Shown: positions 13,945-57,329 of the stretch, piece after piece
Layout: every line of letters begins with the position of its first letter
Position numbering within the stretch: the first letter of the stretch is position 1
Assembly: GCA_963662285.2 (NCBI GenBank)
Contig: CAXXMV010000006.1
Location: forward strand, 640,001-704,000
DNA length: 64,000 bases
Origin: a bacterium
Lineage (GTDB): Bacteria > Hinthialibacterota > Hinthialibacteria > Hinthialibacterales > Hinthialibacteraceae
Direction of reading: 5' to 3'
Made by a program: the position numbers and the translations under genes
The notes under the pieces: model-generated
What the model saw: the letters and a program-made list of their open reading frames with translations, nothing else
The model's database searches: none
Told to the model about the DNA's origin: nothing

Positions 13945-14099
13945 ATACCGCGAGTAATATATCCCGCTTATAAATGTCAAGCAACCAAGTCCCCTCTCCC
14001 CGCGGGAGTGTAAAGGCCTGGGACATGGGTAACAGGTGTTCGGGGACATAGGTAACACATTTTCTGAGTGTATTCTAGCCTTGAAAGGAGGCGAAGAAT

Positions 14100-15266
14100 A
14101 TGCCCTGGAACGAGGTGGACCTTATGTCTCTGAGAAAAGAATTCGTATTGTTGAGCCAGCAAGAAGAAAGCAACATCAGCCAATTATGTAAACGGTTTGA
14201 TATCAGCCGTAAGACGGGTTACAAATGGATCAAACGGTACAAAGAAGGAGGAGTCGAAAATCTCCAAGACCGTTCCAAAAAACCCAATACTTGCCCTCAT
14301 CAAACAGATAAGTCTATCGAGCAAGCCATTACAGAAAATCGCGAAAAAGGATGGGGAGGACGCAAAATTCGCTCTCGTCTGATTCAATTGGGATACGAAA
14401 ATGTTCCTAGCGCCAGCACTATTACTGCCGTGTTACGCCGACTGGGATTGCTGGATGAAAAGGAAAGTCACAAGCACAAAGCCTATAAGCGTTTTGAAAA
14501 AGATACGCCCAACGAATTGTGGCAAATGGATTTCAAAGGAGATTTTCCCACGCTCAAAGCACGCTGTTATCCGCTCAGCATTCTGGATGATTGCACGCGC
14601 TTTGTTCCCGGATTATTTTCGTGCGCCAATCAGCAAAGGGAAACCGTGCAAGACTCCCTGGAAAGCGTGTTCAGGATGTATGGTATGCCTCGGGCGATGT
14701 TGATGGATAACGGAAGTCCGTGGGGAGGATGCAAAACCTGCGAATACACCAGATTGACAATATGGCTGATACGATTGGGTATTCGCGTGTATCACGGTCG
14801 CCCCTACCATCCGCAAACCCAAGGCAAGGTCGAGCGATTTCACCGGACCTTTAAGCAAGAATTGCTGATAAGGGAATCGTTTGTGGATTTGGAATATTGC
14901 CAAAGGCGGTTTGATGAGTGGCGTTATGAATACAATTTTGAGCGTCCTCACGAAGCCCTGGATATGGATGTCCCGGCTAACCATTATACGTCCAGTCCTT
15001 TTGTTTATCCGGGAAGTTTGCCGGATATCGAGTACGCGCCGGGCAGCATTATCAGGAAGGTGCAACAAGGAGGTCGGGTGGCGTACCGTGGTGAAGATTA
15101 CCGGGTGAGCCGCGCCCTGGTAGGATGCCCGGTTGCCTTGAAACCCGCTATGACCGATGGGATGATGGACGTATATTTTTGCCGACAAAAAATCAAGACG
15201 CTCGATCTGCGTTTGAATGAAATCAAAGAAGATAACTTGGCAATCCAGAAAAAGGCGTCACAATAG
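14100..15266 (+). CDS. IS481-family transposase
   Basis: MPW.EV, ISRKTGYKWIKRY, WQMDFKG, DNGSPW, PQTQGKVERFHRTFKQE, YNFERPHEAL. Confidence 0.95.
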   Translation: MPWNEVDLMSLRKEFVLLSQQEESNISQLCKRFDISRKTGYKWIKRYKEGGVENLQDRSKKPNTCPHQTDKSIEQAITENREKGWGGRKIRSRLIQLGYENVPSASTITAVLRRLGLLDEKESHKHKAYKRFEKDTPNELWQMDFKGDFPTLKARCYPLSILDDCTRFVPGLFSCANQQRETVQDSLESVFRMYGMPRAMLMDNGSPWGGCKTCEYTRLTIWLIRLGIRVYHGRPYHPQTQGKVERFHRTFKQELLIRESFVDLEYCQRRFDEWRYEYNFERPHEALDMDVPANHYTSSPFVYPGSLPDIEYAPGSIIRKVQQGGRVAYRGEDYRVSRALVGCPVALKPAMTDGMMDVYFCRQKIKTLDLRLNEIKEDNLAIQKKASQ

Positions 15267-15267
15267 A

Positions 15268-15426
15268 AATTGGTTGGGCGAAACGGAAGCGGGCGCTGCA
15301 GGAGTGCAACCCGCCAGGGATAGCCGATCCGAGGTGCGAGGGATAATGCAGGAGGTGAAATATTCACCTCCTCCCTCTAAGCCAACCAATTATCCTGAGC
15401 ATCTCTAGATGCCTAAAAAAAAACTC
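15268..15426 (+). ncRNA. Candidate structured ncRNA in the IS481 3' region (family not recognised)
   Basis: Nested stems; core GAAACGGA-stem-GCAGG loop-CAA bulge-stem-AGGGATA is shared, with covariation, with 57041-57100 (minus strand). Confidence 0.6.
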
Positions 15427-15572
15427 AAACAATAACCTGGGATAAATCCCGGTTTTGATAAAAAACTGTAACCCATGTCCCCGAACATGTGTTACCCATC
15501 TACCCGGTCTGTACAGGGAGAGGGTCAGGGTGAGGGGGGAATCTCCCAACACCCTAACTAATCAATCATCTA

Positions 15573-16823
15573 TCACTTTAGGTTAATGTATTCTGTTCCA
15601 GATTTTACATTATCATTCCGCCAAAAGTCGGCATGATATTCGCCGCCGTCCGAGTTCCATATTTTTGATACGATATCGATATCTCCATCACCGTCCACAT
15701 CGCCGATCTGGGCTTCATGCCATCCGGGGTTATCAATATGGAATACAACTGGTTTAAAGACTGGTTCTTTTTTTGTTCCGGTGTTTTCCCAGATGACTCC
15801 GCGTTCTTTCATGCCTGGAGGGCGCATGGGCAGTTTCCCGCTGCTCATCATATATGTGTCGGGATCTTCCTGTTCACCGCCAAAGATATCCAAATCTCCA
15901 TCACCGTCAAAATCAGCCACGCCCAACGAATGAAATGATCCAGTACCTTCAACATCGCCTTGCGCTACGGGTGGGTCGGATAATTTATGTTGTTTCCATA
16001 TTTGGCCTTTATCCAGATTTTCGATCCAATAGACATGCGAAAAACCTGTGTCGCAATCGCTGTATACAATGTCATTACGTCCGTCATGGTTCAGATCAAC
16101 CACCCAGCTGCGGGCGCTTGTTCCATAAGAGGCTTTAGGAATCAACACATGGGGCCACTGGTGCTGGTTCCATGTACCAACGCCCTGTCCCGGATTTTCG
16201 TACCACAGTCCAGGTAACACTACGTCAGCGTCACCATCGCCATCCAGATCGCCGATGCCGTTCGGGGCGTCGCCGCCATGAAAATCGTGGTCTTCGCAAA
16301 TGCGGTGTTTTTCTAAATTATTGGCCGTATCGAACCAAAAGACGCCTATATCGGCTACTATATCTTTTTTTCCATCGCCATTGATATCGGCGGCTACAAT
16401 GTCGTGCTTGCCGCCATCATAAGAATTTCCGGGCCAGGGCGTATCCGGTTTTTCTTTAAGATTGCCGGGATTTTTGAACCAGACATAGTTCATGGCTACA
16501 TCCAGCCAGCCATCATGGTCTATATCCAATACTGCCGCACCGAGACATTTATCCAGGGTTTTTGCGCTGCCCATAGTATGCTGAATCCATTTATTATCAG
16601 TCACCCGTTCATACCAGTACGCAGTAGCAACCGTGCGCCGGGATAGAGCAATATCCAAATCGCCGTCGCCATCAAAGTCAGCCAGCACCGGCCCGGATGT
16701 ACCCCATTTTTCACCCGGCAAAGGTTTGGCGATAGTGAAATGAGTCCACTGTGATACATCAGCTATTGAGTTAATAGAAAAAACTAAAATGAAAGAGAGA
16801 ATTGATAATAAGCGCATCTTCAT
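15573..16823 (-). CDS. Secreted FG-GAP/VCBS repeat protein
   Basis: Signal peptide; repeated D(F/I/L/V)DGDGDxD motifs. Confidence 0.88.
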   Translation of the reverse strand: MKMRLLSILSFILVFSINSIADVSQWTHFTIAKPLPGEKWGTSGPVLADFDGDGDLDIALSRRTVATAYWYERVTDNKWIQHTMGSAKTLDKCLGAAVLDIDHDGWLDVAMNYVWFKNPGNLKEKPDTPWPGNSYDGGKHDIVAADINGDGKKDIVADIGVFWFDTANNLEKHRICEDHDFHGGDAPNGIGDLDGDGDADVVLPGLWYENPGQGVGTWNQHQWPHVLIPKASYGTSARSWVVDLNHDGRNDIVYSDCDTGFSHVYWIENLDKGQIWKQHKLSDPPVAQGDVEGTGSFHSLGVADFDGDGDLDIFGGEQEDPDTYMMSSGKLPMRPPGMKERGVIWENTGTKKEPVFKPVVFHIDNPGWHEAQIGDVDGDGDIDIVSKIWNSDGGEYHADFWRNDNVKSGTEYINLK

Positions 16824-16981
16824 TGATTTCGCTCCAATTTGGTTAGATTATACGAATTTATTTATAAATATTGGCATAAATGGAATAACAATGCTACCTC
16901 ATGGAAATGTTATTGATCGAGATGATTGTTATGGTTCTGTTGTTCTTATTGGTAAAGGTCTTTGGGTTATCGTAGATTTAG

Positions 16982-17014
16982 TCAAGGGTAGAAAGGACAC
17001 TACCCTTGGCACCC
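16982..17014 (-). repeat. Palindromic repeat family A
   Basis: TCAAGGGTAGAAAGGACACTACCCTTGGCACCC (compensatory TAG/CTA stem). Confidence 0.75.
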
Positions 17015-17080
17015 GTATTTGGCGCCCGCAAGGGGCTGTAGGTGTTAGGGGGGATTTACATGACCAATTGGAAAAGTTAG

Positions 17081-18832
17081 TTAATTAATCTCCACTACCT
17101 TCCCATTTGATTCCATCGTAAATAAATGTGCATCTGGATCAATCATAAGACTCACGCCCCGGTATGGATACGCCTTTTCTGGCCGATAGGTTTCAAAGAA
17201 GGGACTGACTGCGATAGTGAATATCTCTCCCAGGCGATTATATACATACAGTCCACGTCCACGCGGATCAAGTTCCAGGTCTATAGCCATATCCAGGTTA
17301 GTCCAATAAGGCAGCAATGATTTAGCCACTGGCGGCGACTGGTGCGGTATGGAGGGCGATCCGCTGATTTGGTTAGAATGAACCGCGCCATACTGATCCA
17401 GCAGGTAATAACCATTTCCGAATGGTTCCAGTTCCATATCTACGATGGCTGGAATCTTAAACTGTAATTTATTGCTATCAGGAAAGATTTTGGGCTTCTT
17501 ACCTGCAATAATCATCTCGCCATAATTATTGATGATGAAAGCGGCTGAGTTATCAGGTAGAAACTCTATATCTACCGTATGATTATGACCTTCAGGAAAC
17601 GCTGCTATGTTTTCAAGAATTTCCAGCGGCTCAGAGGTCAGTATCTCACCGTTAGTTCGCAGAACTACATAGACTCCATCAACTATTTCCAGATCAATCG
17701 CGTCATTGAAATCTTCAGCTGGAGTCCAGTCGCGCCACAGATATCTTTCGTGGATGATATAAACTCTTCCCCAGCGGTCAAGCGAGTAAAAAGTTTTTGT
17801 TTCGACATCCATCTCCGCGTCCACCCAGACGCGGCTATTTTTTGCGTAATCGGGTCTAGTCTCCGGCATGTCCCACATGAATTCGTAATGCCATAGTTTT
17901 TTGAATAGATCAATATGTTTTGTGGGATAATCGCCAGCTGGAGGCAGGGCGTGGGCGCATAATCTGGGGTCGTTCTTGCGCATCGCCTGATAAGCCATGC
18001 GGTAGCGCATAAAAAACGGCCAATTCAAAAACTTGGGAATATCGCCTTTCACCAAAAGTCGGTCGTATACAAGGTTGTAATTATAAGCGGCTTGATATGG
18101 TTTGCGTTCAGCTCTAGCGATATCCTGGGGGGCGTCATACTTAAAGGGAGTCCACGCCCGTTCCAATCGACCCGCCTGATACCATAAACTCCATGTCTTA
18201 AAATTACCGCCCCAGACGCTCAGCGTTGTGAATCCCAGAATCAATAGTAATGGTATATGGCGCCTGCCCCGTTTCATCTGAGGCATTGATCTGGCAATAA
18301 TCGTTATGCATCCAATAACGGGAAGAACCATAAGCGAAGGAATAATTGAAGAATCCAGCAATGGCGCTTCTTGCCATAATTCAGTATGGGATATGAGTGA
18401 AGCAAGCCCTGCAACCATAAAACCAAAAAACGTTACTATCCAAATAGTCAACAAAAACACTGGATAAGCCCCGCAGGGACATAACTGAACCTTTGGGCGG
18501 TAGATAATCCCTATCAGCAGCAGCATAGGGAAGAGAACCGTCAACCAACCCAGTGAGTCTCCATAGCCGCGCAAAAAACCTAGCCATCCAATTGCATAAG
18601 GTATAGCGCATAACATGGCGGTTAGTAATGTATGGCTTTGTTCCGTCAGCTCCAGGCGCTGGTCATTTAATGCCCGCAGGCTGAGGTAAACGGTTAGAGC
18701 AAGTAGGATCAAATCTTCCTGGAAGGTGGTCTGGAATTGCGGAAGACAAAAAACTGTCAATGGCAGAACTACCGGAATCCACCGGGAGGCCTGTTTCCAA
18801 TCCACTTTTTCCATAAGATTTCCTGAAGCCAT
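17081..18832 (-). CDS. Hypothetical membrane protein with C-terminal propeller-like repeats
   Basis: Hydrophobic N-terminal third; repeats such as AIDLEL..GRGLYVYNRLGEI and GYYLLDQYGAVH. Confidence 0.7.
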   Translation of the reverse strand: MASGNLMEKVDWKQASRWIPVVLPLTVFCLPQFQTTFQEDLILLALTVYLSLRALNDQRLELTEQSHTLLTAMLCAIPYAIGWLGFLRGYGDSLGWLTVLFPMLLLIGIIYRPKVQLCPCGAYPVFLLTIWIVTFFGFMVAGLASLISHTELWQEAPLLDSSIIPSLMVLPVIGCITIIARSMPQMKRGRRHIPLLLILGFTTLSVWGGNFKTWSLWYQAGRLERAWTPFKYDAPQDIARAERKPYQAAYNYNLVYDRLLVKGDIPKFLNWPFFMRYRMAYQAMRKNDPRLCAHALPPAGDYPTKHIDLFKKLWHYEFMWDMPETRPDYAKNSRVWVDAEMDVETKTFYSLDRWGRVYIIHERYLWRDWTPAEDFNDAIDLEIVDGVYVVLRTNGEILTSEPLEILENIAAFPEGHNHTVDIEFLPDNSAAFIINNYGEMIIAGKKPKIFPDSNKLQFKIPAIVDMELEPFGNGYYLLDQYGAVHSNQISGSPSIPHQSPPVAKSLLPYWTNLDMAIDLELDPRGRGLYVYNRLGEIFTIAVSPFFETYRPEKAYPYRGVSLMIDPDAHLFTMESNGKVVEIN

Positions 18833-18947
18833 TACTAAAACCTTTCACCATGCTTTATCTGAATTATGTACAATCATACCTTCTTGATAAAGGAGAGGAT
18901 AACGCTATTGGACTTTTTCCTTACAATAATGATTCTAAAATAGTCCT

Positions 18948-19652
18948 ATGAAACAGAAACTTACTCCGGACGGTTCTATCGCTATCCTTATCCCTTGCTA
19001 TAACTGCGGCGACGCAGTTACTGATGTGGTTGATAAATGCAGGCAATATGCAGAGCGAATTCTAACCATTAATGATGGCAGTACGGATAATACGGCGGAA
19101 TGCCTCCAGCAATGCCAGACCGAGTCAATTGGCTGGCGCCATAATAGAGGAAAGGGCGCCGCTTTACGGGATGGATTCGCCCATTTAATACAACAAGATG
19201 ATTGTTCAGCCATCATAACCATCGATAGTGATGGTCAGCATGATCCATCGGATATCAGCCGGTTCGCGCAATTATTTGAGCAGTCAAAGGCCGATATCGT
19301 GGTTGGTTGGAGAAATTTTGATACGCCGGATATCCCCCTCATCCGTCGTTATTCCAATATCTACTCTTCCAGACTAATCGCCGCAATAACCGGCTGTGAT
19401 TTACGCGATTTGCAATGCGGTTACCGTTTGTTTTCTCGTTCCGCTTTGAAGCGCTTGCTTCCACTGATACATTCAGACCGTTACGCCGTTGAAACCGAGA
19501 TGATACTTATGGCGCATAAATTGGGCATGAAAATCGAAGAGACTCCTATTCAATGCATCTATACCGAAGAATCCAGCCAGCGTTCCTCATGGAAGCCATT
19601 GATAGACTCGTGGCATATCGCTAAAGTTGTGGCTCGTCATATTCAGATATAG
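18948..19652 (+). CDS. Glycosyltransferase family 2 (DPM1-like)
   Basis: LIPCYN, INDGSTDNT, NRGKGAAL, IDSDGQH, DLQCGYR. Confidence 0.92.
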   Translation: MKQKLTPDGSIAILIPCYNCGDAVTDVVDKCRQYAERILTINDGSTDNTAECLQQCQTESIGWRHNRGKGAALRDGFAHLIQQDDCSAIITIDSDGQHDPSDISRFAQLFEQSKADIVVGWRNFDTPDIPLIRRYSNIYSSRLIAAITGCDLRDLQCGYRLFSRSALKRLLPLIHSDRYAVETEMILMAHKLGMKIEETPIQCIYTEESSQRSSWKPLIDSWHIAKVVARHIQI

Positions 19653-19759
19653 TTATCTACATGTTGCTGTTCACTTGTTTCATGCAGTGAAAACGGATAA
19701 TTTCTTTGAGTTAGATTGAAATGTTAATTATTTAATGATATAAAAAGGAGACTTATAAA

Positions 19760-20164
19760 ATGAAAAGCGTTAGATTTTTACTGCCGCTGTTGATTATAGT
19801 TGGTCTGGTCGGCGCCATATCATTTGCCAGCGTTGATTTCAGCAAAGAACAACAGGGACTCTTAAAGCATGTGGTCTGCTTTAAGTTCAAAGAAGATGCC
19901 AAATCAGCTGAAATTGACAAAGTTGTTCAGGCGTTCAAAGACCTGCAACAGAAAATTCCTACCATCATCAATCTTGAATGCGGAACCAATGTCAGCCCGG
20001 AAAACTTAACCCGTGGCTTTACTCATTGCTTCATCCTGACTTTCAAAAGCGCTAAAGACCGTGATGCCTATCTGCTCTATCCCGCCCATAGAGCCTTTGG
20101 CGGCGTGCTTGGCCCGGTTATGGCCAAAGACGGCGTAATGGTTATCGATTTCTGGACAAAATAA
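19760..20164 (+). CDS. Dabb family (stress-responsive A/B barrel) protein with signal peptide
   Basis: LKHVVCFKFK, GTNVSPE, GFTHCFILTF, RDAYL..PAH. Confidence 0.88.
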   Translation: MKSVRFLLPLLIIVGLVGAISFASVDFSKEQQGLLKHVVCFKFKEDAKSAEIDKVVQAFKDLQQKIPTIINLECGTNVSPENLTRGFTHCFILTFKSAKDRDAYLLYPAHRAFGGVLGPVMAKDGVMVIDFWTK

Positions 20165-20240
20165 TTTATTATCCAAAGTATTGTATGTACAAATAAGATT
20201 TTATATTCATGAAATTTTGGAAATGAGGAGATTTGGAATT

Positions 20241-22994: not shown

Positions 22995-23028
22995 TAGATA
23001 GTTTCAATAATCTATATGACTTTAACAT

Positions 23029-23192: not shown

Positions 23193-23470
23193 TATAATAG
23201 GTGGCTTAATCAAGGGCTGGACACAATGCAGTTTTGCCCTTGGCGCCCGGCGGTTAGATTATGATTATAACATCAATTGAAAAATCCAAGGTTTTGAAAA
23301 CAACCCCCTAACCTCCCCCAGGCTTGGGGGAGGGATCCAACGCTTCAATCTCAGCGCATAGGGTGGGCTAAAAGCGATAGCGGGCGCCAAGGGTAGTGTA
23401 TTTTCTACCCTTGAAAACCACCGACGATTAAACCATAACCAAACGGATGGTGGGCTAAAAGCAAAACCAA
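23193..23470. repeat. Cluster of mixed repeats
   Basis: Family A at 23210-23248 and 23382-23414; family B variant at 23301-23335; partial REP GGTGGGCTAAAAGC at ~23362 and ~23449. Confidence 0.7.
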
Positions 23471-33166: not shown

Positions 33167-33331
33167 GTCCTCTCCCCCTCCAGAAAAGGGCTAAGACAAT
33201 GTCATTAAGTTAACCGTGTTGTCCCCTCTCCCGCTGGGGTTGTAAAGGCCTGGGACATGGGTAACAGGTGTTCGGGGACATAGGTAACACATTCCCTGAG
33301 TGTATTCTAGCCTTGAAAGGAGGCGAAGAAT

Positions 33332-34498
33332 ATGCCCTGGAACGAGGTGGACCTTATGTCTCTGAGAAAAGAATTCGTATTGTTGAGCCAGCAAGAAGAA
33401 AGCAACATCAGCCAATTATGTAAACGGTTTGATATCAGCCGTAAGACGGGTTACAAATGGATCAAACGGTACAAAGAAGGAGGAGGCGAAAATCTCCAAG
33501 ACCGTTCCAAAAAACCCAATACTTGCCCTCATCAAACAGATAAGTCTATCGAGCAAGCCATTACAGAAAATCGCGAAAAAGGATGGGGAGGACGCAAAAT
33601 TCGCTCTCGTCTGATTCAATTGGGATACGAAAATGTTCCTAGCGCCAGCACTATTACTGCCGTGTTACGCCGACTGGGATTGCTGGATGAAAAGGAAAGT
33701 CACAAGCACAAAGCCTATAAGCGTTTTGAAAAAGATACGCCCAACGAATTGTGGCAAATGGATTTCAAAGGAGATTTTCCCACGCTCAAAGCACGCTGTT
33801 ATCCGCTCAGCATTCTGGATGATTGCACGCGCTTTGTTCCCGGATTATTTTCGTGCGCCAATCAGCAAAGGGAAACCGTGCAAGACTCCCTGGAAAGCGT
33901 GTTCAGGATGTATGGTATGCCTCGGGCGATGTTGATGGATAACGGAAGTCCGTGGGGAGGATGCAAAACCTGCGAATACACCAGATTGACAATATGGCTG
34001 ATACGATTGGGTATTCGCGTGTATCACGGTCGCCCCTACCATCCGCAAACCCAAGGCAAGGTCGAGCGATTTCACCGGACCTTTAAGCAAGAATTGCTGA
34101 TAAGGGAATCGTTTGTGGATTTGGAATATTGCCAAAGGCGGTTTGATGAGTGGCGTTATGAATACAATTTTGAGCGTCCTCACGAAGCCCTGGATATGGA
34201 TGTCCCGGCTAACCATTATACGTCCAGTCCTTTTGTTTATCCGGGAAGTTTGCCGGATATCGAGTACGCGCCGGGCAGCATTATCAGGAAGGTGCAACAA
34301 GGAGGTCGGGTGGCGTACCGTGGTGAAGATTACCGGGTGAGCCGCGCCCTGGTAGGATGCCCGGTTGCCTTGAAACCCGCTATGACCGATGGGATGATGG
34401 ACGTATATTTTTGCCGACAAAAAATCAAGACGCTCGATCTGCGTTTGAATGAAATCAAAGAAGATAACTTGGCAATCCAGAAAAAGGCGTCACAATAG
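33332..34498 (+). CDS. IS481-family transposase
   Basis: Same as 14100-15266 except EGGVEN to EGGGEN. Confidence 0.95.
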   Translation: MPWNEVDLMSLRKEFVLLSQQEESNISQLCKRFDISRKTGYKWIKRYKEGGGENLQDRSKKPNTCPHQTDKSIEQAITENREKGWGGRKIRSRLIQLGYENVPSASTITAVLRRLGLLDEKESHKHKAYKRFEKDTPNELWQMDFKGDFPTLKARCYPLSILDDCTRFVPGLFSCANQQRETVQDSLESVFRMYGMPRAMLMDNGSPWGGCKTCEYTRLTIWLIRLGIRVYHGRPYHPQTQGKVERFHRTFKQELLIRESFVDLEYCQRRFDEWRYEYNFERPHEALDMDVPANHYTSSPFVYPGSLPDIEYAPGSIIRKVQQGGRVAYRGEDYRVSRALVGCPVALKPAMTDGMMDVYFCRQKIKTLDLRLNEIKEDNLAIQKKASQ

Positions 34499-34499
34499 A

Positions 34500-34658
34500 A
34501 ATTGGTTGGGCGAAACGGAAGCGGGCGCTGCAGGAGTGCAACCCGCCAGGGATAGCCGATCCGAGGTGCGAGGGATAATGCAGGAGGTGAAATATTCACC
34601 TCCTCCCTCTAAGCCAACCAATTATCCTGAGCATCTCTAGATGCCTAAAAAAAAACTC
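34500..34658 (+). ncRNA. Candidate structured ncRNA, copy of 15268-15426
   Basis: Same sequence within the duplicated IS. Confidence 0.6.
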
Positions 34659-34811
34659 AAACAATAACCTGGGATAAATCCCGGTTTTGATAAAAAACTG
34701 TAACCCATGTCCCCGAACATGTGTTACCCATCTACCCGGTCTGTACAGGGGTTAGGGTGAGGGGGATATACAAAAACAACATAACTTAATAACATTAGAA
34801 ATAGGTGATGT

Positions 34812-35410
34812 ATGAAAAGAAATTCAGGCTTCACTCTAATCGAATTATTAATTGTTGTAGCAATCATCGGGATACTGGCGGCAATCGCCGTGCCCAATTT
34901 TCTCAACGCTCAGACGCGGGCGCGCGTGGCTCGGGTAATGGGCGATCACAAAGCCCTCGGAACCGCCTTGGAGATGTATTCACTGGATAACAATAATTTT
35001 CCATGGCCCATCGGAAACGGGCAAGGTCATTCGTCCTACTCGGTCTATATCGAATACCTTCACGAATTAACCACTCCCACTCCATATATAGCCAGCGTAT
35101 CCTACACCGATATCTTCAAACCCCAGCGTGAAAAAACCAACTGGTATCCGGATGACACGGTATTCAGTTATCAATATGTAAGTTACAACGGCAGTTGGGC
35201 GCGGTTGTCCAATGTATCTGCCGCCATGAATGGCACCCCGGTTACTGCATCTCCAGTTATGGTCCGGATCATGGCGCCAACGGGGTGGAATGGCATCCTA
35301 TCACCGGAGATTCCATCTCCCTTTACACATCCAGCAACGGCCTGGTCAGCAGCGGCGACATAGGCCGTTTTGGAGGATCAGTTAAATCACGCACCATCCT
35401 GGGTGGATAA
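34812..35410 (+). CDS. Prepilin-type (type IV pilin/T2SS pseudopilin-like) protein, frameshifted near 35236-35239
   Basis: GFTLIELLIVVAIIGILAAIAVPNF; one extra C in a C4 run joins it to GYCISSYGPD...SNGLVSSGDI. Confidence 0.8.
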
Positions 35411-41282: not shown

Positions 41283-41298
41283 TAAGAATGAGCGAACA

Positions 41299-47513: not shown

Positions 47514-47570
47514 CCCCCTCACCCTAGCCCTCTCCCGGAGGGAGAGGGGACTTTGTTAGCCCAACATTAT
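47514..47570 (-). repeat. Repeat family B, intact copy
   Basis: Reverse complement ATAATGTTGGGCTAACAAAGTCCCCTCTCCCTCCGGGAGAGGGCTAGGGTGAGGGGG. Confidence 0.8.
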
Positions 47571-48026: not shown

Positions 48027-48723
48027 ATAGCCCGAAACTAATATTATCTTTTCAGAAAAATCTGATACCGGATTTGAACAATGGTTTGATACTGCGTTGG
48101 CATCATTAGAAGAGATTCGCAAAACAGAAGCGAACTCCTTCATTGAACTACCCATTGAGAGACATGGACGGAACGGGATATTTTCTGACAATCCTCCCAT
48201 AGATGACCTGGATGTAGTATTACAACGGCTTATAAAATCAGATTCACCTCTGGGTTCCGTCCTCATTCCTGTCAGTATGGATCAACCAGAGGAGAATATA
48301 GGAATAGAAATTTCCGCAATTGATGGGTGGGCCGATCTGGCTTCTTATGCAGGCATTGAATTGGCGCGGTTCACTATTATCTCTCTGGATACATTGGATA
48401 AAGAGTATGTTCAGGAAGCTCTATCAGTCACAATCGGATATATGAATGAACAAGAGATTACTGTTACGCTCTCTTCATCAGGTGATGACAGCATATTGTC
48501 AAGCATTGTTGAACAACAGAGAAAGATACCTGATCGCAAATGCGGCTTGAATAGAACCATAGGTTTACAGGATGTGGATTCGTTCAATTCCCTGCCTATC
48601 ACTGAAACTGTATCGATCCGTCTGCCCGGATCATTTTCCGCTCAAACTGTGCTGGATAATTTCAGCAAAATTCGTGCTATCCTGAAAAATCCTGTTCATG
48701 CAATTGTGTATGAAATTGAATAG
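48023..48723 (+). CDS. Hypothetical protein (possible TIM-barrel-like), frameshift in the A5 run at ~48056
   Basis: ATG overlaps the upstream stop; one extra A joins it to the 48097-48723 ORF. Confidence 0.5.
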
Positions 48724-48732
48724 GCAACTCAA

Positions 48733-48765
48733 TCAAGGGCAGAAAATACACTGCCCTTGGCACCC
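48733..48765 (-). repeat. Palindromic repeat family A
   Basis: TCAAGGGCAGAAAATACACTGCCCTTGGCACCC. Confidence 0.75.
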
Positions 48766-48838
48766 GCCTTGATTATACAACATGCGATTTTATATGAGCG
48801 TCTCTGGGATTACTCAATTACCTTTATTGTGTTTTATA

Positions 48839-49981
48839 TCAAGTAGAGACTGCCTGGAGTATTACTTGCAACGCGTTTTCGATGCGGTGCGGGTAGGTGT
48901 GATCTCTCAAAACTCTGGCGCGTCCTTGCTTGATAATCTGACGGCGCTCGTTGGGGAATTCTAAATAATAGGCAATCTTGTTTCTCAAATCCTCTATAGA
49001 ACTCAAAAAATAGCCTCCTTACCCGGATCGAAGAACCGTCCCGCAGCAGGAACCCAGTCGGATAGCAGAAAACCATCCGCCACTGGTGCATTGAAATCAC
49101 GCTGATTTAAGCTACCCCGGCATTGTATGCTATGAATATTCAAGTTGACCTTGGAAGAGGCAAACACTGAAGGCAGTTCATTAATGGGATCAACCGGACC
49201 ATAAAAACGCTCCAGTAGTGGGGAACCTTGCAGCAGAAATTGCCCAATCCTGATTACCGTAAATCCGTAAATCAAAATCCTGCAACGCTTCCAATACTTG
49301 AATCCGACGGCGATTATTGGCTTCCCAATAAAGGTAATGGGCGACGGTCGCATTGATGTTAATCTGTTTGCCCGGTTCGATAGGATTCTCTTCAGCGATT
49401 TGAAAGAAATTTTTGTCACGATTTTCCAATTGCAAATCAACTAACCGGTCGATATAAGACTGCATTTGCGTCGGTAATTGCGCTCTACGTTTGGATTGAT
49501 CAATCACTCCACCGACGAAAGATACATCACAAGCAAAACGTGCATCAAACGATCCTGCTGAATTTATATCACAGGCTAAAGGCAGGCAACCGCAGGCATG
49601 AGGATTATGCTTTGTGATAAAATCCAGATAGGTATCATCAAAACTGAAAACAAATTCATTCGCTTCAAAAGGCCGGTCAATATAAAAATGGGGATCATCC
49701 AGATACCAGACCCATTTTTTCGCGTCATGAGGACATTGGTTATCGGGGATTTCAAGATATTCGTATAATTGTGAAGCGGATTGATTAATCAATAGTATCC
49801 AATCAGGCTTATTTTCCAACAGGTGGCGGCGTAGTAGTGGTTTAGATGCCGGCTCCAATAGCGGAGCGCTGGCCATCCAGGTTTGCCAGCCATGAGTTTG
49901 CAGTTGCTGGAAGACGCGTCTTTTGAAAAGCCCGAATCCCCGGTCTTCACCATCGGAATATGTCCAAATTGATTTCGCCAT
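48839..49981 (-). CDS. CgeB-like glycosyltransferase, two frameshifts (~49240, ~49005)
   Basis: WYLDDP, LPLACD, DVSFVG, IYG..W, SSKVNLNIH, LNQRDF, then EDLRNKIAYYL..RVLRDHTYPHR in a third frame. Confidence 0.75.
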
Positions 49982-50096
49982 GTCGCACTTTCTGATATTT
50001 ATTCGATTCTGACTTGGTTATCAGCCGGGATTTGTTATACTTAAATTCTGAATTACTTTAATGAATGACGCCAAACATTAAACCTAGGGGCAATCT

Positions 50097-53000
50097 GTGA
50101 CCAAGTATATTCTCTCTACTATCCGTTTTTTATCCTCTACTAAACTAGCTGTTGTTCTTCTTGTCGGTTTAACCATTATATTAAGCATCGCTACTTTTTA
50201 TGAATCAAGCACCAGCGCATCCGACGCCCAACGCTTATTCTATAAATCTTTCTGGTTTAATATCCTTTTATTTCTACTCGGATTAAACGTATTATGCTCT
50301 GCTTTAATCCGTTGGCCATGGAAGAAACAGCAGATTGGATTTGTTATAACCCATTTAGGGATTATTCTAATTCTAATCGGTGCAGTGATTACCAGCACTA
50401 CCGGCATCGAAGGCCAACTAGCGCTGATTGAAGGCCAAACTGGCGATTCGATAACCATTCCTGAATCCGTTTTTACTGTAAAAGCGCCACGTTTGAAAGT
50501 CCAACAGGATTTTGATCCCTGGTTTTTAGAGTCACCTATTCCCGACGGGAAAGAGATTTTATTTAACGTCGATCAAACTGCTATCAACTGTTACATCACC
50601 AGATTACTGTTTAATCCAAGAGTAATCGAGCATGTCACCGAAAATGGCCATGTCGATAATCCGGCCGTTCAAATCAAGTTTCACCATTCAGGACAATCAA
50701 TGTCAGAGGCGCATGAGTGGCTATTGGCCAATTCAGCGCAACGCAACCAGTTGAATTTAGGAGCGGGTTCTATAGTATTCAAACGCATCCAATCTCAAGC
50801 AGAGATGCAATCCATACTTGATTCAACCAAGGCGCCGACCAACCAGTTTACCATTCTGCTCAATGAATCCAATCAACTATCTTACATATCATTCGATTCA
50901 TCGGGTAATGCCAAAAACAATCAAATAACTCTTGAAAAGATTATTGAAACGCCCTGGCCATCACTTAAAATTTCAGTGGAGAAGTTATATCCCAAAGCGC
51001 AAATAAGTCAGGAACTGATAGACGCCGATGATCAGATGGGGGGTGGGCATCCTCTTCCTTTAGCGCAAGCCCGAATTGAATACCAAGGACAATCGCAACA
51101 ACTGAACATTTTCTATAACAGGCCAGAGACAATTACTATCGCCGGTGAAACAGTAGAAATTGAGTTTGGCCAAAAACAGGTTCCACTAGGTTTTTCTATT
51201 CAGCTGATTGACTTCCAAGCGCCCCGGTATCCGGGAACCAACCGCCCTTCGCGTTTTCAAAGCCAGGTCAAGCTGATAGATAAATCTCAAGGAATTAATG
51301 AAGAACGTTTGATATATATGAATAATCCTTTGGCATACAATGGCTTTCTGGTATATCAATCCAGTTATGAGGAAGGTGTTAATGGCAGGCCGGATACTTC
51401 TATATTCAGCGTAGCGCTGGCGCCGGGAACGCCATTGGTTTACCTGGGTTCCTTTGTACTATGCTGCGGAATGGCTTTTATGTTCTTTAGAAAAATGAAG
51501 AGAAAACAAGAAAATATATTAACCAACCAAGGGCAAGGAGTAGGCTCTATCGTGAGACGCAGTCTTCTGCTCTTAGGATTGATGGCAATTATCATTCCTA
51601 CGGTTCAAGCAGTTGAAGTTCCCAAGAACCTTAATTACGACATTGTCCGCAGCATCCCCATTCTCGAAGGCGGACGCTATAAACCGCTCGGTACATTCGC
51701 TGGCGAATCGATGCAGGAGATCACCGGACGTTGGAAATTCAATAAGACTGATCCCATGGCGTATCTATGCGCCATGATGATTTCGCAGGAATGGTATAAC
51801 GAACCACTTATCAAGATTAATTATCATGCGCTCAAAGAGATGTTGGGCTACAAACCTGAGCGAACCCATTTCTCATATAAAGAGTTGGTATCCAATCAGC
51901 AATTCATGGATTTGGTCGAACGGATTCGGCAGCGCATGATGATGCATACTGAACTGACCCGTTTGGAAACTGAACTGACCATAGTTTATAACAAACTGGA
52001 ACTGTTTGATCAGATTCAAACCGGCGAAGCCTTAACAATCGTACCAGCGACAGGCGATGATGAAGAAAAGCCCTGGCTGCCAATTATTAAACCGTCGGAT
52101 TACCCGCAAGAGACGCAGCAGGAATTACATACAGTTTTTGTACATCTACTGGATGCCGCCAAAGCTGATGACGCGGCCATGTTCAATAAGTATGGATTAG
52201 AATTAAAGAATATCCTGGCTGGATTGAACAACGAACTTTACCCTCCAATCATAGATATAGAGCGTGAAGTGGTTTATAACAGTTCCCGGCCTTTTCTTAA
52301 ATCATGGATTTTTTATCTGCTCTCATTTCTAATGTTCCTGGCGTCGTTTTATTTTATGAAATCCAGGCCGCTTTATTGGGGCGCTATGGCCGTCTGCCTG
52401 ATCGGCTTCAGTTATAACACCTGGGGACTGATATTCCGGGGTATGATTGCGCACCGGGCGCCGGTCTCTAATATGTATGAATCGGTGATATTCGTCGGTT
52501 GGGGGATATTGCTGTTCGCTTTGATCTATGAATTGATATACCGCGCCAGATGGTTCGGCGCCCCGGCGTCGTTGCTGGGAGTATGCACCTTGATCCTGGC
52601 CGATATCCTGCCCTTTGATCCTAATATCGAACCACTGCAACCAGTGCTGCGCAGCAACTACTGGCTGATAACCCATGTTCTGACTATCACCCTGAGTTAC
52701 AGCGCCTTCTTGCTGGCTATGGGATTAGCGCACATAAATCTCGCCGTCTATTTCTACATTCCCAACCGTAAGGATTTACTCAATAATTTGAGTTTGTTCC
52801 TATACCGCATCCTGCAAGCGGGAGTAATTCTACTCGCCGCAGGGACGCTGCTGGGCGGGGTATGGGCGGCTGAATCCTGGGGGCGCTTTTGGGGTTGGGA
52901 CCCTAAAGAGACCTGGGCATTGATATCACTATTAGGATATATGGCAATCCTGCACGCCCGCTTTACTGACTGGATCGCGGATTATGGAACCGCGGTTTGC

Positions 53001-53216
53001 TCAATCATCGGCTTCTGGCTTATCCTGATGACCTGGTATGGGGTTAATTTTATATTGGCTTCGGGTTTGCATAGCTATGGATTCGGCGCGGGTGGAACCA
53101 TTTATATCATTATCTTTATGATTGTTGAAACCCTGTTCCTGATTATTGTTGGCGTTAAATATCTCATCGCTATATTTAAGGGTGGTTATTGTCTGAATCA
53201 GGATGACCAGGATTAA
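50097..53216 (+). CDS. System II cytochrome c biogenesis protein, ResB/CcsB-like fused to CcsA
   Basis: THLG, IYMNNPL..YQSSY; GRYKP; APVSNMYES, LQPVLRSNYWL, WAAESWGRFWGWDPKETW, GLHSY. Confidence 0.88.
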   Translation: MTKYILSTIRFLSSTKLAVVLLVGLTIILSIATFYESSTSASDAQRLFYKSFWFNILLFLLGLNVLCSALIRWPWKKQQIGFVITHLGIILILIGAVITSTTGIEGQLALIEGQTGDSITIPESVFTVKAPRLKVQQDFDPWFLESPIPDGKEILFNVDQTAINCYITRLLFNPRVIEHVTENGHVDNPAVQIKFHHSGQSMSEAHEWLLANSAQRNQLNLGAGSIVFKRIQSQAEMQSILDSTKAPTNQFTILLNESNQLSYISFDSSGNAKNNQITLEKIIETPWPSLKISVEKLYPKAQISQELIDADDQMGGGHPLPLAQARIEYQGQSQQLNIFYNRPETITIAGETVEIEFGQKQVPLGFSIQLIDFQAPRYPGTNRPSRFQSQVKLIDKSQGINEERLIYMNNPLAYNGFLVYQSSYEEGVNGRPDTSIFSVALAPGTPLVYLGSFVLCCGMAFMFFRKMKRKQENILTNQGQGVGSIVRRSLLLLGLMAIIIPTVQAVEVPKNLNYDIVRSIPILEGGRYKPLGTFAGESMQEITGRWKFNKTDPMAYLCAMMISQEWYNEPLIKINYHALKEMLGYKPERTHFSYKELVSNQQFMDLVERIRQRMMMHTELTRLETELTIVYNKLELFDQIQTGEALTIVPATGDDEEKPWLPIIKPSDYPQETQQELHTVFVHLLDAAKADDAAMFNKYGLELKNILAGLNNELYPPIIDIEREVVYNSSRPFLKSWIFYLLSFLMFLASFYFMKSRPLYWGAMAVCLIGFSYNTWGLIFRGMIAHRAPVSNMYESVIFVGWGILLFALIYELIYRARWFGAPASLLGVCTLILADILPFDPNIEPLQPVLRSNYWLITHVLTITLSYSAFLLAMGLAHINLAVYFYIPNRKDLLNNLSLFLYRILQAGVILLAAGTLLGGVWAAESWGRFWGWDPKETWALISLLGYMAILHARFTDWIADYGTAVCSIIGFWLILMTWYGVNFILASGLHSYGFGAGGTIYIIIFMIVETLFLIIVGVKYLIAIFKGGYCLNQDDQD

Positions 53217-53237
53217 AGGATATGCAGGATTTCCGTT

Positions 53238-53317
53238 TAGGGCAACCATGAAGGATTGCCCCTACTTGTTATCGTTGGTGGATTTTTGATGGGTCGGTGA
53301 AGCGTGACCCATCCTAC
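53238..53317 (-). repeat. Two GTAG-type REP palindromes
   Basis: TAGGGCAACCATGAAGGATTGCCCCTAC and GATGGGTCGGTGAAGCGTGACCCATCCTAC. Confidence 0.75.
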
Positions 53318-53413
53318 GCATTGGTGGATTTTTGGTTAAGGTATCTTATAGTGGTTATCATGAATAAACCTATTCATGATAACCACTTTTTTCGTCATTT
53401 CTTCCCTATTCAA

Positions 53414-55270
53414 TCAAAACATCTTCTTCAAGACGCCAACTTCTATGTTGCTGGGGTATTTTGCAGAGCGATATATGCTGTTAGTTACTTTGATGAAATC
53501 ATCTTGATCCGCTTCAAAAATATTGGGGACGTATTTCTGTGGATTGCGGTCGATAAACGGGAACCAGGTGCTTTGTACGTGAACCATGATCCGGTGTCCG
53601 CGCTTGAAGTTGTGTAAGACATCCCACAACTCAAATGATACTTCGGTAATTTCATTTGGGTTAAATGGCTTGGGTTTCTCGTAACTTTCGCGGAAGCGGC
53701 CCCGGAAGGCTTCAGCGCGAATTAAGGCTTGTTGAGCCGACTTTTCTTCCAAATCATCTGGATATACATCAATCAATTTTACGATCCAATCCGAATCGGT
53801 TCCGGTGGTGGAAACGAATAGATTGGCTTGGATGGTTCCAGCCAGCGTTACGTCTTCTTCGAGAATGTCTGTTTGATACACCAATACATCCGGCCTGCGG
53901 GATGCGAAGCGTTGGTCTTCTGTGTAAAAGGTGTTGTTTATAAACTGCGAATTATCCTTGGTATGGGGAACAGGTTTGGCGGGATCGCTGATATAAGAAT
54001 CAAGAGCCTTGGAACCTTCTTTGGGTTTGTTAAATGACAACGCCCCGTTTTTGTTGAAATAGAATTTGGTTCTCTCAGCCGATTTGGGCGGCCATTGATC
54101 GAAATGCCGCCAACGATTGGCGCCGGTTTCAAACATTAAGGCTTCGGGAAGGTTGAGTTCGCCTGCTTCATCTTTTAAGTAATGCTTAAAGAATTGTAAG
54201 TCGACGTTGTTCTTGAAATACTCAGAGGTGGGGAATCCAAAATCTGCATCGCCCAACTCGCTTCCCTGGTCGCCAAGCCATCCACCATGGCGCCACGGCC
54301 CCATGACCAGCATGTTAAAGATATCTGGATTCTCCTGCTCAATCTTCTCATAGGTTTTTAATGGCCCGAATAGGTCTTCGCGGTCGTACCATCCGCCGAC
54401 CACCATAACCGCCGCTTTGATGTTTTTGAGATGAGGCCGGATATTGCGTTTCTGCCAGAACGAGTCGTAATTGGGATGTTGCGTTACATTAGTCCATAAT
54501 TTGGATTTCTTTTCAAAATAGGATTTATCAACATTTTTCAATGGCCCTACATCCATAAAGAATTTGTATGCATCGGTTGTTTCGATTTCATAGATGGGAT
54601 CAGACCATTCATCAACAAGCCCTTCCCGTTTTTGCGGAACTCTATTGAGAAAGCCAAACCAATGATTAAGTAAATAGGCGCCGTGATGGTAAACATCATC
54701 CCAACAAAAATCCGTAACCGGCGCTTGCGGGGAGACCGCTTTTAAGGCGGGGTGAGAATCTATAGAACCGGCTGACGCGTAAAAACCGGGATAGGATATT
54801 CCCCATTGCCCGACTTTTTCATTATGATTGGGGATATTATTCAGGAGCCATTCAATCGTATCATAAGTATCAGTACTTTCATCGATATCTTTATTGCTTT
54901 TCTTGTCAGCGATATGCGGAGTCATGTGAACAAACTCACCCTCCGACATAAAACGCCCCCTTACATCCTGATAGACGAATATAAAGCCTTCTTTCTCGAA
55001 CGCGCCATGCGGACTGATAGCGCCCCGGTATTGATCGGGTCCATAGGGGCCAACGCTATATGGGGTGCGTAACAGTAATATTGGATATTTTTTATAGACA
55101 TCGTTGGGAGTATAAATTGAGGTGAATAGTTTCACCCCGTCACGCATGGGGATGCGGCATTCATACTTAGTGTAATTAGCGCGGATATAATCCGCCCGTT
55201 CATCCGCTTGAACTAAACCAAATTGCATACAAAACAAGAAGAGACAAACATACAAAACTTGTTTTTTCAT
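53414..55270 (-). CDS. CocE/NonD family hydrolase (secreted)
   Basis: IPMRDGVKL, RTPY, QDVRGRFMSEG, WGISYPG, GGWYDRED, GPWRHG. Confidence 0.92.
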   Translation of the reverse strand: MKKQVLYVCLFLFCMQFGLVQADERADYIRANYTKYECRIPMRDGVKLFTSIYTPNDVYKKYPILLLRTPYSVGPYGPDQYRGAISPHGAFEKEGFIFVYQDVRGRFMSEGEFVHMTPHIADKKSNKDIDESTDTYDTIEWLLNNIPNHNEKVGQWGISYPGFYASAGSIDSHPALKAVSPQAPVTDFCWDDVYHHGAYLLNHWFGFLNRVPQKREGLVDEWSDPIYEIETTDAYKFFMDVGPLKNVDKSYFEKKSKLWTNVTQHPNYDSFWQKRNIRPHLKNIKAAVMVVGGWYDREDLFGPLKTYEKIEQENPDIFNMLVMGPWRHGGWLGDQGSELGDADFGFPTSEYFKNNVDLQFFKHYLKDEAGELNLPEALMFETGANRWRHFDQWPPKSAERTKFYFNKNGALSFNKPKEGSKALDSYISDPAKPVPHTKDNSQFINNTFYTEDQRFASRRPDVLVYQTDILEEDVTLAGTIQANLFVSTTGTDSDWIVKLIDVYPDDLEEKSAQQALIRAEAFRGRFRESYEKPKPFNPNEITEVSFELWDVLHNFKRGHRIMVHVQSTWFPFIDRNPQKYVPNIFEADQDDFIKVTNSIYRSAKYPSNIEVGVLKKMF

Positions 55271-55352
55271 GATACGGTTCCTCCTTTAATGTAATTATCC
55301 ATACTTTATTATGGTTCCATGCTGCATTTTCTTTTACAAGAGTGGTCATTAT

Positions 55353-55390
55353 CAACCCTCTCCTAACCTCTCCCAATCTTGGGAGAGGGA
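55353..55390 (-). repeat. Repeat family B variant
   Basis: CAACCCTCTCCTAACCTCTCCCAATCTTGGGAGAGGGA. Confidence 0.7.
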
Positions 55391-55578
55391 TGTATGATTA
55401 AAGTGTTTTCAAGAACTAAGTCTAAACGATCTAAATGTCTATGTATCATAACCCCTCTCCCCCAAGCCTGGGGGAGAATTCAAGTGTATGAACCGGGCAC
55501 ATCCTTTACAGAATAAACCGGGCACATGGTTTACACAAGTCGATACTAAGAACCGACCAGAAGAAAGGAGTCGGTTCG

Positions 55579-56790
55579 ATGACTTGGAAGGAAAACAGTG
55601 CCATGGATGCAAGAATGAAATTTATTGCGGATGTCCTCCGCAAAGAAGACACACTAAGCGCCTTATGCCAAGCATATGGCATTAGTAGACCAACCGGATA
55701 TAAATGGATCAAGCGCTATCAGGAAGACGGTCCTGGTGGATTGGAGGAGCGATCCCGGGCGCCCCATACCCAAGCACTAGCCGTTTCTAAAGAGACCGAA
55801 AAAGAAGTGAAGGCTATGCGAAAAAAGTTTCCGCACTACGGTCCTAAAAAATTACGGGTGGAACTGAAAAAAAAGGATGCGACGAAGCACTGGTCGGCAA
55901 CCAGTACGATTGGCGAGATACTAAAACGCAAAAATCTGATTGTCAGCCGCAAGCAAAAAGATCGCGCCAAACCAAGTGGTGAAGCGTTAACCGAATTCGA
56001 CCAAGTGAACCGCGTATGGTGCGCGGATTTCAAAGGAGATTTTCTAACGGGAGACGAACATCGATGTTTCCCTTTAACCGTATCGGAAGGGGCTAGCCGC
56101 TATTTACTCTGCTGCCAAGGCATGCAAGAAACCAATGGCGCATTGGTACGCGTAATTTTCGAGCAGATTTTTCGCGAGTATGGTTTACCAGAAGTCATTC
56201 GAACGGATAACGGGGCGCCCTTTGCGTCGACCGGAATCGGAGGGTTAACCAAATTATCCGTGTGGTGGATAAAACTGAGAATTTATCCAGAACGAATCCA
56301 GCCGGGTCGGCCTCAACAAAATGGCCGTCATGAGCGAATTCACCGGACCTTGAAAGCAGAGGCCATTTCTCCACCAGCGCCAACGCTGCGTGAACAACAA
56401 AAACGTTTTGATCAATTTCAAAAAGTGTACAACGAAGAGCGGCCTCATGAGAGTTTGGGACAACGACCTCCCGCGCAGTTGTATCAACCCTCGCCGCGCG
56501 TCTATTCAGGTAAAGCGCCGAATTGGGAGTATCCAGAGACCATGCAGGTGCGCCAAGTGAAAACCCATGGTGAAATCAGTTGGCGAAGCAAGCATTGGTA
56601 TTTGGGGGAAGCTTTGGGAGGTGAATTGGTGGGACTAGAGGAATTGGAAGAGAATAATTGGCGCATTAGTTTGGGTAACGTGATTCTCGGTTGGTTGAAT
56701 ATGTCAAAAGGTGAGGTGGTGCGTGAATTGTCTTTGAGACGCATCAATCATCCAAAAGCAATCAGTCACCCGGCAGTATGTCCCAGGTAA
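55579..56790 (+). CDS. IS481-family transposase
   Basis: MTWKE, ISRPTGYKWIKRY, WCADFKG, DNGAPF, PQQNGRHERIHRTLK, YNEERPHESL. Confidence 0.95.
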   Translation: MTWKENSAMDARMKFIADVLRKEDTLSALCQAYGISRPTGYKWIKRYQEDGPGGLEERSRAPHTQALAVSKETEKEVKAMRKKFPHYGPKKLRVELKKKDATKHWSATSTIGEILKRKNLIVSRKQKDRAKPSGEALTEFDQVNRVWCADFKGDFLTGDEHRCFPLTVSEGASRYLLCCQGMQETNGALVRVIFEQIFREYGLPEVIRTDNGAPFASTGIGGLTKLSVWWIKLRIYPERIQPGRPQQNGRHERIHRTLKAEAISPPAPTLREQQKRFDQFQKVYNEERPHESLGQRPPAQLYQPSPRVYSGKAPNWEYPETMQVRQVKTHGEISWRSKHWYLGEALGGELVGLEELEENNWRISLGNVILGWLNMSKGEVVRELSLRRINHPKAISHPAVCPR

Positions 56791-56916
56791 AAAATGAGCT
56801 AGGGAAGTATCAAGATGATGAATAATTCAGGTATTAATTTTCCTGAGATTGAATCCAGATCGTCTCTTTTTCGAGAAAATCAAAGAGCGCACGGGTGAAA
56901 AAAAAGGTGGCAATAT

Positions 56917-57119
56917 CGGGGGCGCCGCCCCCGTACCCCCGGAGTTTTTTTAGGCATTAGCACAAACTCCAGATAGTATGCAAAAAAAAGCAAAGGGACG
57001 GTTCTAAATCCGTCCCTTTAGCGACTATCCGTCGCCCGTGCACCAGGATATCCCTTGACAGGTTGCTCTCCAGCAGAGCCTGTCTCCGTTTCTCCTGGTG
57101 ATAATAACTATCGGATAGC
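56917..57119 (-). ncRNA. Candidate structured ncRNA homologous to 15268-15426, antisense to the transposase
   Basis: Minus strand CACCAGGA-GAAACGGA-GACAGG-CTCT-GCTGG-AGAG-CAA-CCTGTC-AAGGGATA-TCCTGGTG, then a hairpin and ATGCCT-A7-CTC. Confidence 0.6.
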
Positions 57120-57329
57120 TCGAAATAATCTGTAGAAAAAGAAGTAAAAAAACAGTTCTAGCAAGTAAGCAATTCAGAATACGTTGATATACCTGAAAAC
57201 GGATTATCTCTTTAAAAAAACAGATAAGTTGCCATAATTTGCGAGACAAAAGTGTAAACCATGTGCCCGGTCTAAAGTGTAAACTATGTGCCCGGTCATT
57301 CACAAGGAGGGGGTTGATTGGTCTAAACG

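Follow-up and report, generated by a model that had tools for sequence, protein, structure and literature searches.

Insertion of IS481-family elements in short palindromic repeats of a bacterial genome

Introduction

Insertion sequences (ISs) of the IS481 family duplicate 4-15 bp of target DNA, and the Bordetella elements IS481 and IS1002 use a 6-bp duplicated target with a palindromic tetranucleotide core, which is a short sequence motif, unlike the midpoint of a hairpin repeat 20-30 bp long. IS1397 and ISKpn1 of the IS3 family insert in the loop of a palindromic unit, and IS110-type enzymes are DEDD recombinases. Targeting of repetitive extragenic palindromic (REP) sequences has been reported for elements of the IS3, IS110, IS4, IS256 and IS5 families (PMC1525189); by term count, IS481 does not appear in that article. 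An IS481-family element of Pseudomonas fluorescens SBW25 occupies one position of REP sequences in five of five copies, according to a 2024 paper (PMC11708052). Here we describe two ISs, named ISA and ISB, in a 64,000-nucleotide stretch of DNA (the window; GenBank assembly GCA_963662285.2, contig CAXXMV010000006.1, positions 640,001 to 704,000) from a bacterium of the phylum Hinthialibacterota. All three copies of these elements in the window lie in short hairpin repeats, and we put at roughly 80% the probability that the IS481 transposase complex itself selects the centre of the palindromic repeat as its target.

The SBW25 element resembles ISA and ISB in its family, its single transposase gene, its inverted repeats of ~49 bp and its 4-bp duplication, and differs in host phylum, repeat sequence, length (~1.3 kb) and the lack of an RNA module in the account given of it (PMC11708052). 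As described there it represents one genome, compared with 18 and 5 copies here and relatives in about 20 genomes from many phyla. Specific insertion of IS1397 and ISKpn1 into the palindromic units of enterobacterial bacterial interspersed mosaic elements (BIMEs) is reported in PMC1525189, with the specificity credited to the transposase. These elements share with ISA and ISB a DDE (rve) transposase closely related to IS481 and the insertion into palindromic units, but belong to the IS3 family, are read in two frames with a programmed frameshift and use another repeat family. REP-inserting members of the IS110 family, namely IS621, ISPpu9, ISPpu10 and ISPa11, are described in PMC1525189, PMC8450116, PMC12288879 and PMC11208160; their enzyme belongs to the Transposase_9/20 class (PMC1525189), and an RNA specifies the target. 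In contrast, ISA and ISB have a DDE transposase and their targeting is independent of the RNA module that they carry. The nearest published parallel to this module is ssr9 of ISPpu9 (PMC8450116 and PMC12288879). This gene for a small RNA lies downstream of the transposase in an IS that targets REP sequences, and additional solo copies of it are present in the genome. Transposition does not require ssr9, which has been characterised as a selfish hitchhiker. Neither its RNA nor its IS family is related to those of ISA and ISB, and the ISA/ISB module occurs in four IS families and in both orientations.

Given the SBW25 precedent and REP targeting in other families, this kind of behaviour is known and has a precedent within the IS481 family. 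In the literature searched (supplementary files lay outside the search), we found no general statement of palindrome-centre targeting by the IS481 family besides SBW25. The present analysis adds scale (23 copies and remnants in one genome), a preference for a class of sequence, spread across phyla and evidence against an RNA guide.

Insertion sites in the window

The source assembly comprises 7.29 Mb in eight contigs with 44% GC, and positions outside the window are given as contig and coordinate, the window itself being C6:640001-704000. ISA (1507 bp, IS481 family) occurs twice in the window and its relative ISB (1818 bp) once, and all three copies are intergenic by the open reading frame (ORF) map. 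The elements and their duplications are as follows.

14009..15515, + strand: ISA copy 1, 1507-bp IS481-family insertion sequence, junctions read directly
14004-14008 and 15516-15520: 5-bp target duplication of ISA copy 1
14100..15266, + strand: transposase gene of ISA copy 1, 388 amino acids, single ORF
33241..34747, + strand: ISA copy 2, 1507 bp, transposase gene at 33332-34498
33236-33240 and 34748-34752: 5-bp target duplication of ISA copy 2
55485..57302, + strand: ISB, 1818-bp IS481-like element, ends fixed by comparing five genomic copies
55481-55484 and 57303-57306: 4-bp target duplication of ISB
55579..56790, + strand: transposase gene of ISB, 403 amino acids, single ORF

In each empty site reconstructed in the window, a short centre separates a C-rich arm from a G-rich arm. 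The three empty sites put forward in the original prediction, with their duplications and coordinates, proved exact when the junctions were read directly. The interrupted repeats and the intact hairpins listed with them are given below.

13991..14008: left half of the ISA copy 1 target repeat, C-tract arm and loop, the last 5 nt being the duplication
15516..15539: right half of the ISA copy 1 target repeat, duplication and then a pair of G-tract arms
33223..33240: left half of the ISA copy 2 target repeat, duplication at 33236-33240
34748..34765: right half of the ISA copy 2 target repeat, duplication at 34748-34752, palindrome imperfect
55450..55484: left part of the ISB composite repeat, with outer C-rich arm, intact inner hairpin (55456-55477), spacer and 4-bp duplication
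57303..57316: right part of the ISB composite repeat, second 4-bp duplication followed by the outer G-rich arm
23312..23333: intact target-class hairpin, paralogue of the interrupted sites C2:1206393 and C8:559146
47528..47548: intact target-class hairpin
55367..55388: intact hairpin, paralogue of the ISA-interrupted site at C1:606204
57344..57365: intact hairpin adjoining the ISB insertion

Intact paralogues of interrupted sites exist, three of them in the window. Besides the interrupted repeats, the window holds five intact hairpins of the target class.

Genome-wide distribution of insertions

A blastn search of the whole genome recovered 18 full-length ISA copies (99.7-100% identical) and five ISB copies. 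The flanks of all copies were oriented on the element and the empty sites were rebuilt, which gave a 5-bp duplication in 17 of the 18 ISA copies and a 4-bp duplication in four of the five ISB copies. The target class was defined without looking at the insertions, as a perfect stem of at least 6-7 nt with an all-pyrimidine 5' arm in which 5 or more bases are C and with a loop of 2-12 nt; an initial definition (6-nt arm, 5 C) missed the commonest arm type and was widened. The genome contains 397 intact loci of this class, covering 8485 bp, and a block-shuffled genome contains 15. The repeats were claimed to be rare, and this is borne out by the 109 bp that the intact hairpins occupy in the window and by their genome-wide share of 0.116%.

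The ISA duplication falls inside a strict C-arm hairpin in 13 of the 18 copies. With the class making up 0.116-0.124% of the genome, this corresponds to a binomial P of 1.4e-34, and to 1.4e-21 if just 10% of the genome tolerated insertion; both values assume independent copies, which differing duplications and flanks back for most copies, not for all. The flank analysis thus upholds the original prediction that the insertions fall in one class of hairpin repeat. It also corresponds to the "type 1 association" by which Tobes and Pareja (2006) define REP-targeting ISs, with 13 of the 18 copies in strict hairpins and five in imperfect or half repeats. Three of the five ISB copies lie 3-4 nt 3' of a target-class hairpin, within a larger composite repeat and in one constant relative orientation. 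The ISA copy at C1:606204-609516, whose first 12 nt are displaced by ISB, is itself located in a hairpin repeat.

ISA left-end remnants were found abutting target repeats at four positions (C2:869209, C2:88599, C8:1557663 and C2:1208013). The set consists of one 53-nt solo left end and three short remnants, all next to C-arm repeats. The 18-nt remnants at C2:88599, C8:1557663 and C2:1208013 lie inside hairpin repeats, and two of the three are identical and located between the two halves of a repeat. These remnants look like footprints of old insertions that were later deleted, and the deletion may have run between short G runs.

When the sites were aligned on the duplication, a pyrimidine-rich run from -13 to -3 appeared in all 17 ISA copies that have a 5-bp duplication, and most of the aligned sites also had a run rich in purines from +5 to +14. 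No base is conserved within the duplication, so the duplicated bases are not what is recognised, in agreement with the claim, made from their differences among copies, that they do not act as the signal. Relative to the dyad, the duplication centre falls toward the right end in 11 of 13 measurable sites. The IS was also proposed to keep the same orientation relative to the repeat at each insertion. This is correct for the two ISA copies in the window, but genome-wide ISA occurs in both orientations, since the third arm of the asymmetric three-arm repeat faces the right end of the element in five copies and the left end in eight (manual reading).

Relatives in other hosts

At 8 of 10 loci from six other genera of the same order, as counted by eye, a C-tract arm precedes the ISA-like left end; an order-level search contributed no further genomes. 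A scan of species-representative genomes identified 80 loci from many phyla with transposases 38-55% identical to that of ISA. Where a genome has several copies, all of them occupy a palindrome belonging to that host, with arm sequences that vary from host to host. The sets are the following.

An alphaproteobacterium: 6 copies in the host palindrome
A Chloroflexia genome: 3 copies in the host palindrome
Paraburkholderia: 4 copies in the host palindrome and 1 in a second genome
A Reyranellaceae genome: 3 copies in the host palindrome
Planctomycetaceae: 5 copies in the host palindrome (4 of one genome, 1 of another)

An automatic test covered loci that had both flanks and a length of 5000 nt or more, and it required terminal repeats matching at 17 or more of 25 positions together with a duplication. 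It solved 38 loci, of which 29, from 20 genomes, had a duplication of at least 3 bp and no masked bases. At 22 of these 29 sites (15 of the 20 genomes) a perfect inverted repeat with a length of 6 bp or more surrounded the duplication, compared with 50 of 1160 controls from the same loci; for inverted repeats of at least 8 bp the values were 17 of 29 and 9 of 1160. Of the 22 enclosed duplications, 15 sit exactly on the dyad and the remainder are shifted by +1 to +3 nt. Most relatives have 21-120 nt 3' of the transposase gene, and many, in different phyla, are again located at C-tract/G-tract palindromes.

Transposases and element ends

The transposases of ISA and ISB are 35% identical. Both matched the Pfam models rve, rve_3, HTH_32/HTH_28 and LZ_Tnp_IS481, indicating a DDE core preceded by a helix-turn-helix region and a leucine zipper. 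Against the NCBIfam IS481 model NF033577, the ISA transposase scored 268 bits and passed the cut-off of 224, and the ISB transposase scored 217.3 bits, slightly below it; the IS3 model gave ISB only 112 bits, so that IS481 is by far its best-scoring family. The transposase ORFs of both elements are uninterrupted, without an IS3-style programmed frameshift. ISA begins with TGT and ends with ACA, with imperfect terminal inverted repeats of ~50 bp (end-to-end match ~80% over 55 nt); ISB has TGT at its left end and imperfect inverted repeats. Both elements show terminal inverted repeats starting with TGT and short duplications, as expected of IS481 members. Non-coding DNA 3' of the transposase ORF amounts to ~250 nt in ISA and ~510 nt in ISB.

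Target selection

On the basis of these sites, we propose that ISA and ISB are putatively active IS481-family DDE insertion sequences whose transposase complex would pick the centre of short palindromic repeats between genes. The repeats of the source genome have a centre of 2-8 nt, flanked by a C-tract arm on one side and a G-tract arm on the other. Staggered cutting, by 5 bp in ISA and 4 bp in ISB, would take place at or just beside the dyad axis, so that the variable loop bases would become the duplication and the arms would end up on either side of the element. Target choice would most likely be made by the protein, with a two-fold symmetric complex reading a two-fold symmetric site, presented either as easily bent duplex at the dyad or as an extruded hairpin or cruciform, and with the class of arm sequence read in addition to symmetry. 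The trait would be inherited in a large IS481 subgroup, members of which may use whichever palindrome family the host offers. The likely outcome would be landing in intergenic repeat DNA that suffers little disruption, to the probable benefit of the element. The palindromic core of the Bordetella targets fits a family-wide taste for two-fold symmetric sites.

Several observations weigh against this proposal. The remaining 5 of the 18 ISA copies occupy imperfect palindromes or half repeats that fail the strict hairpin definition, and two sites, C6:993229 and C8:566204, have the C-rich half alone with no partner arm. The ISA duplication is not centred on the dyad, its midpoint lying -1.5 to +4 nt away, and ISB lands beside the inner hairpin, not in its loop. 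One ISB copy (C1:606204-609516) is inserted 12 nt inside the left end of ISA with a 4-bp duplication. Another, at C6:136574-138391, has chimeric flanks and no duplication, its left flank being of the loop type and its right flank like other ISB sites, and the ISA copy at C2:917640-919146 lacks a 5-bp duplication and possibly has an imperfect 9-bp one; these two odd copies likely arose by recombination between copies or by adjacent deletion. The binomial P overstates independence, because copies within a genome share descent and several targets are paralogous repeats. Among the relatives, a palindrome of at least 6 bp is absent at 7 of the 29 sites (5 of the 20 genomes). Finally, contigs from two sequencing runs of one sample contain only the occupied site at ISA copy 1, and none bridges an empty site.

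The alternative that fares best is recognition of structure alone, whereby any stable hairpin or cruciform would be hit and the C-tract/G-tract class would merely be the main hairpin family of the genome. Relatives in other phyla use palindromes with unrelated arms, often exactly at the dyad, and within the source genome ISA uses several arm sub-families, both of which speak for it. However, the genome also contains 999 other GC-rich hairpins with non-C-type arms and a perfect stem of at least 8 bp (421 of them at least 10 bp), which could represent terminators or another family of palindromic repeats; not one of these was used by ISA, compared with 13 of 334 C-arm hairpins. The two ISA sites with only a C-rich half, and the many relatives across phyla that again chose C-tract/G-tract palindromes, also speak against it, and we regard this alternative as unlikely. 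The suggestion that targeting is structure-directed therefore stands in that one hairpin class is strongly targeted, but structure alone is not enough, and the class of arm sequence matters besides symmetry.

Structured RNA module in ISA and ISB

The 3' parts of ISA and ISB carry a structured RNA module, located in the window as follows.

15271..15432, + strand: RNA module in ISA copy 1, on the transposase-sense strand, 5' domain at 15271-15347
15437-15452: terminator-like hairpin after the ISA copy 1 RNA
34503-34579: RNA 5' domain in ISA copy 2
56945..57125, - strand: RNA module in ISB, on the strand opposite the transposase gene, 5' domain at 57101-57024
57020-56991: terminator-like hairpin with a U run, belonging to the ISB RNA

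The ISA 3' region folds with z = -3.95 relative to shuffles, and part of it is kept in other genomes where the transposase is not. In an alignment of 18 sequences, the 5' domain forms three helices, in which 91.8% of cells are paired and 11 of 17 pairs carry double changes; the covariation score of this domain is 0.469, against 0.186 for shuffles (0 of 500 reach the observed value) and 0.04-0.08 for slid controls. Over ~170 nt, compensatory changes occur in 22 of 30 predicted pairs (16 sequences). Judged from these alignments, we take the module to be a genuine structured RNA of ~170 nt, separate and covarying. Alignment folding favours the transposase-sense strand of ISA (-25.2 versus -13.8 kcal/mol), and the terminator-like sites agree; an interpretation of the conserved tail of the module as a promoter on the opposite strand was dropped, as the alignment folding favours the other strand. 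An Rfam search at E values up to 1 with the loci of ISA, ISB and six relatives returned no match beyond one chance-level hit (E = 0.58). In the literature searched, again with supplementary files outside the search, we found no description of a comparable IS-borne structured RNA, and the module looks new.

The covariance model R1 detected the RNA in 19 of the 35 genomes of the class, which are all those for the phylum. The genome studied here has 25 copies (18 in ISA, 5 in ISB and 2 solo, the module being found at C8:756387-756463 and C8:769336-769413), two relatives have 20 and 6, and the others 1-3; the module is also recorded at loci L155-L184. Besides IS481, the RNA adjoins the 3' ends of transposase genes of IS3, IS21 (IstB) and IS110 type. 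Its orientation relative to the transposase gene can be either, and it is opposite in ISA and ISB. Genome G007 has a 1531-bp IS3 element carrying the module, with five copies at unrelated, non-hairpin sites. One RNA-bearing IS3 copy in this genome (L131, G007:C17) is located between two copies of a direct repeat resembling a CRISPR repeat.

The original prediction raised RNA-assisted targeting, in which the structured RNA from the 3' part of each element would guide the transposase in the manner of IS110 bridge RNAs. Both elements do carry a conserved, covarying structured RNA, and G and C tracts abound in its variable hairpin. Compact relatives, however, mostly have 21-120 nt after the gene, which leaves no room for the RNA, and still target palindrome centres, and five genomes (G008, G019, G022, G024 and G025) have ISA-like elements with C-tract flanks but no RNA found by R1, with incompleteness of these genomes as a caveat. 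ISA and ISB carry the module in opposite orientations, and it is also present in IS3, IS21 and IS110, including the RNA-bearing IS3 of G007 that does not target hairpins. Since compact relatives and RNA-free genomes target palindromes, an RNA-bearing IS3 does not, and the orientation differs, the RNA is most probably not a guide. Consistent with this, both enzymes are DDE (rve) transposases and not of the IS110 type (no Transposase_9/20), and the variable hairpin covaries as a stem and does not track targets, unlike the target-matching loops of a bridge RNA. We therefore consider RNA guidance very improbable. This negative result matters because bridge RNAs invite a guide interpretation for every REP-targeting element.

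Taking both features together, we tentatively suggest, at slightly short of even odds, that the RNA is an undescribed promiscuous module that passes among, and is carried in, at least four unrelated IS families (IS481, IS3, IS21 and IS110) of a small phylum, acting on the control of transposition or on the host and not as a guide, and that palindrome-centre capture is an ancestral protein-encoded trait of a large IS481 clade that would let lineages adopt the repeats of their hosts. An RNA common to four IS families is in any case an unexplained cargo worth a study of its own.

Other explanations and implications

Random insertion followed by selection would leave copies only where they are harmless, with the repeats serving as neutral DNA. 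The intergenic position of all window copies on the ORF map is compatible with it. Yet the repeats make up ~0.12% of the genome, 13 of 18 copies remain improbable even with 10% of it permissive (P = 1.4e-21), and the point of insertion in the repeat varies by only a few nucleotides, which makes this explanation highly improbable. We give next to no probability to the view that the halves of the repeat are extended terminal repeats of the element or were produced by it, for although the arms form an inverted pair around every copy, they are unlike the IS ends, 397 intact repeats occur without any IS, one ISB copy inside an ISA end has unrelated flanks, and ISA copies 99.7-100% identical differ in arms, loops and third-arm arrangement. 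As near-identical copies carry different arms, the halves are target DNA and not IS ends, which answers the check that had been suggested for them.

With selection of the repeat centre by the transposase complex as the preferred explanation, palindrome targeting would explain how a genome can hold two dozen near-identical IS copies without gene loss, and the targeted repeats would become hot spots for rearrangement. A habit common to IS481 relatives in many phyla turns a single-genome anecdote into a family trait. The natural pairs of enzyme and target also make it possible to test whether a DDE transposase recognises a two-fold symmetric site in duplex or in cruciform form.

Further observations at the insertion sites

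One contig joint across ISA was considered as an empty allele and rejected; it has four other letters and was read as a paralogous intact repeat. For window positions 13300-16200, two metagenome runs (X1 and X3) yielded short, diverged pieces that are 90-95% ISA-like, in one of which an ISA-like left end again follows a C-tract arm; the shared part is too small to count as support.

At several ISA target repeats, conserved context extends some tens of bases on either side. Such extended repeat context was found at window positions 33195-33222 and 34766-34812, around ISA copy 2, and in the flanks of C2:1486325 and C6:993229. The context in the window is located upstream of an ORF that begins at 34813, the product of which starts with a prepilin-type N-terminal motif.

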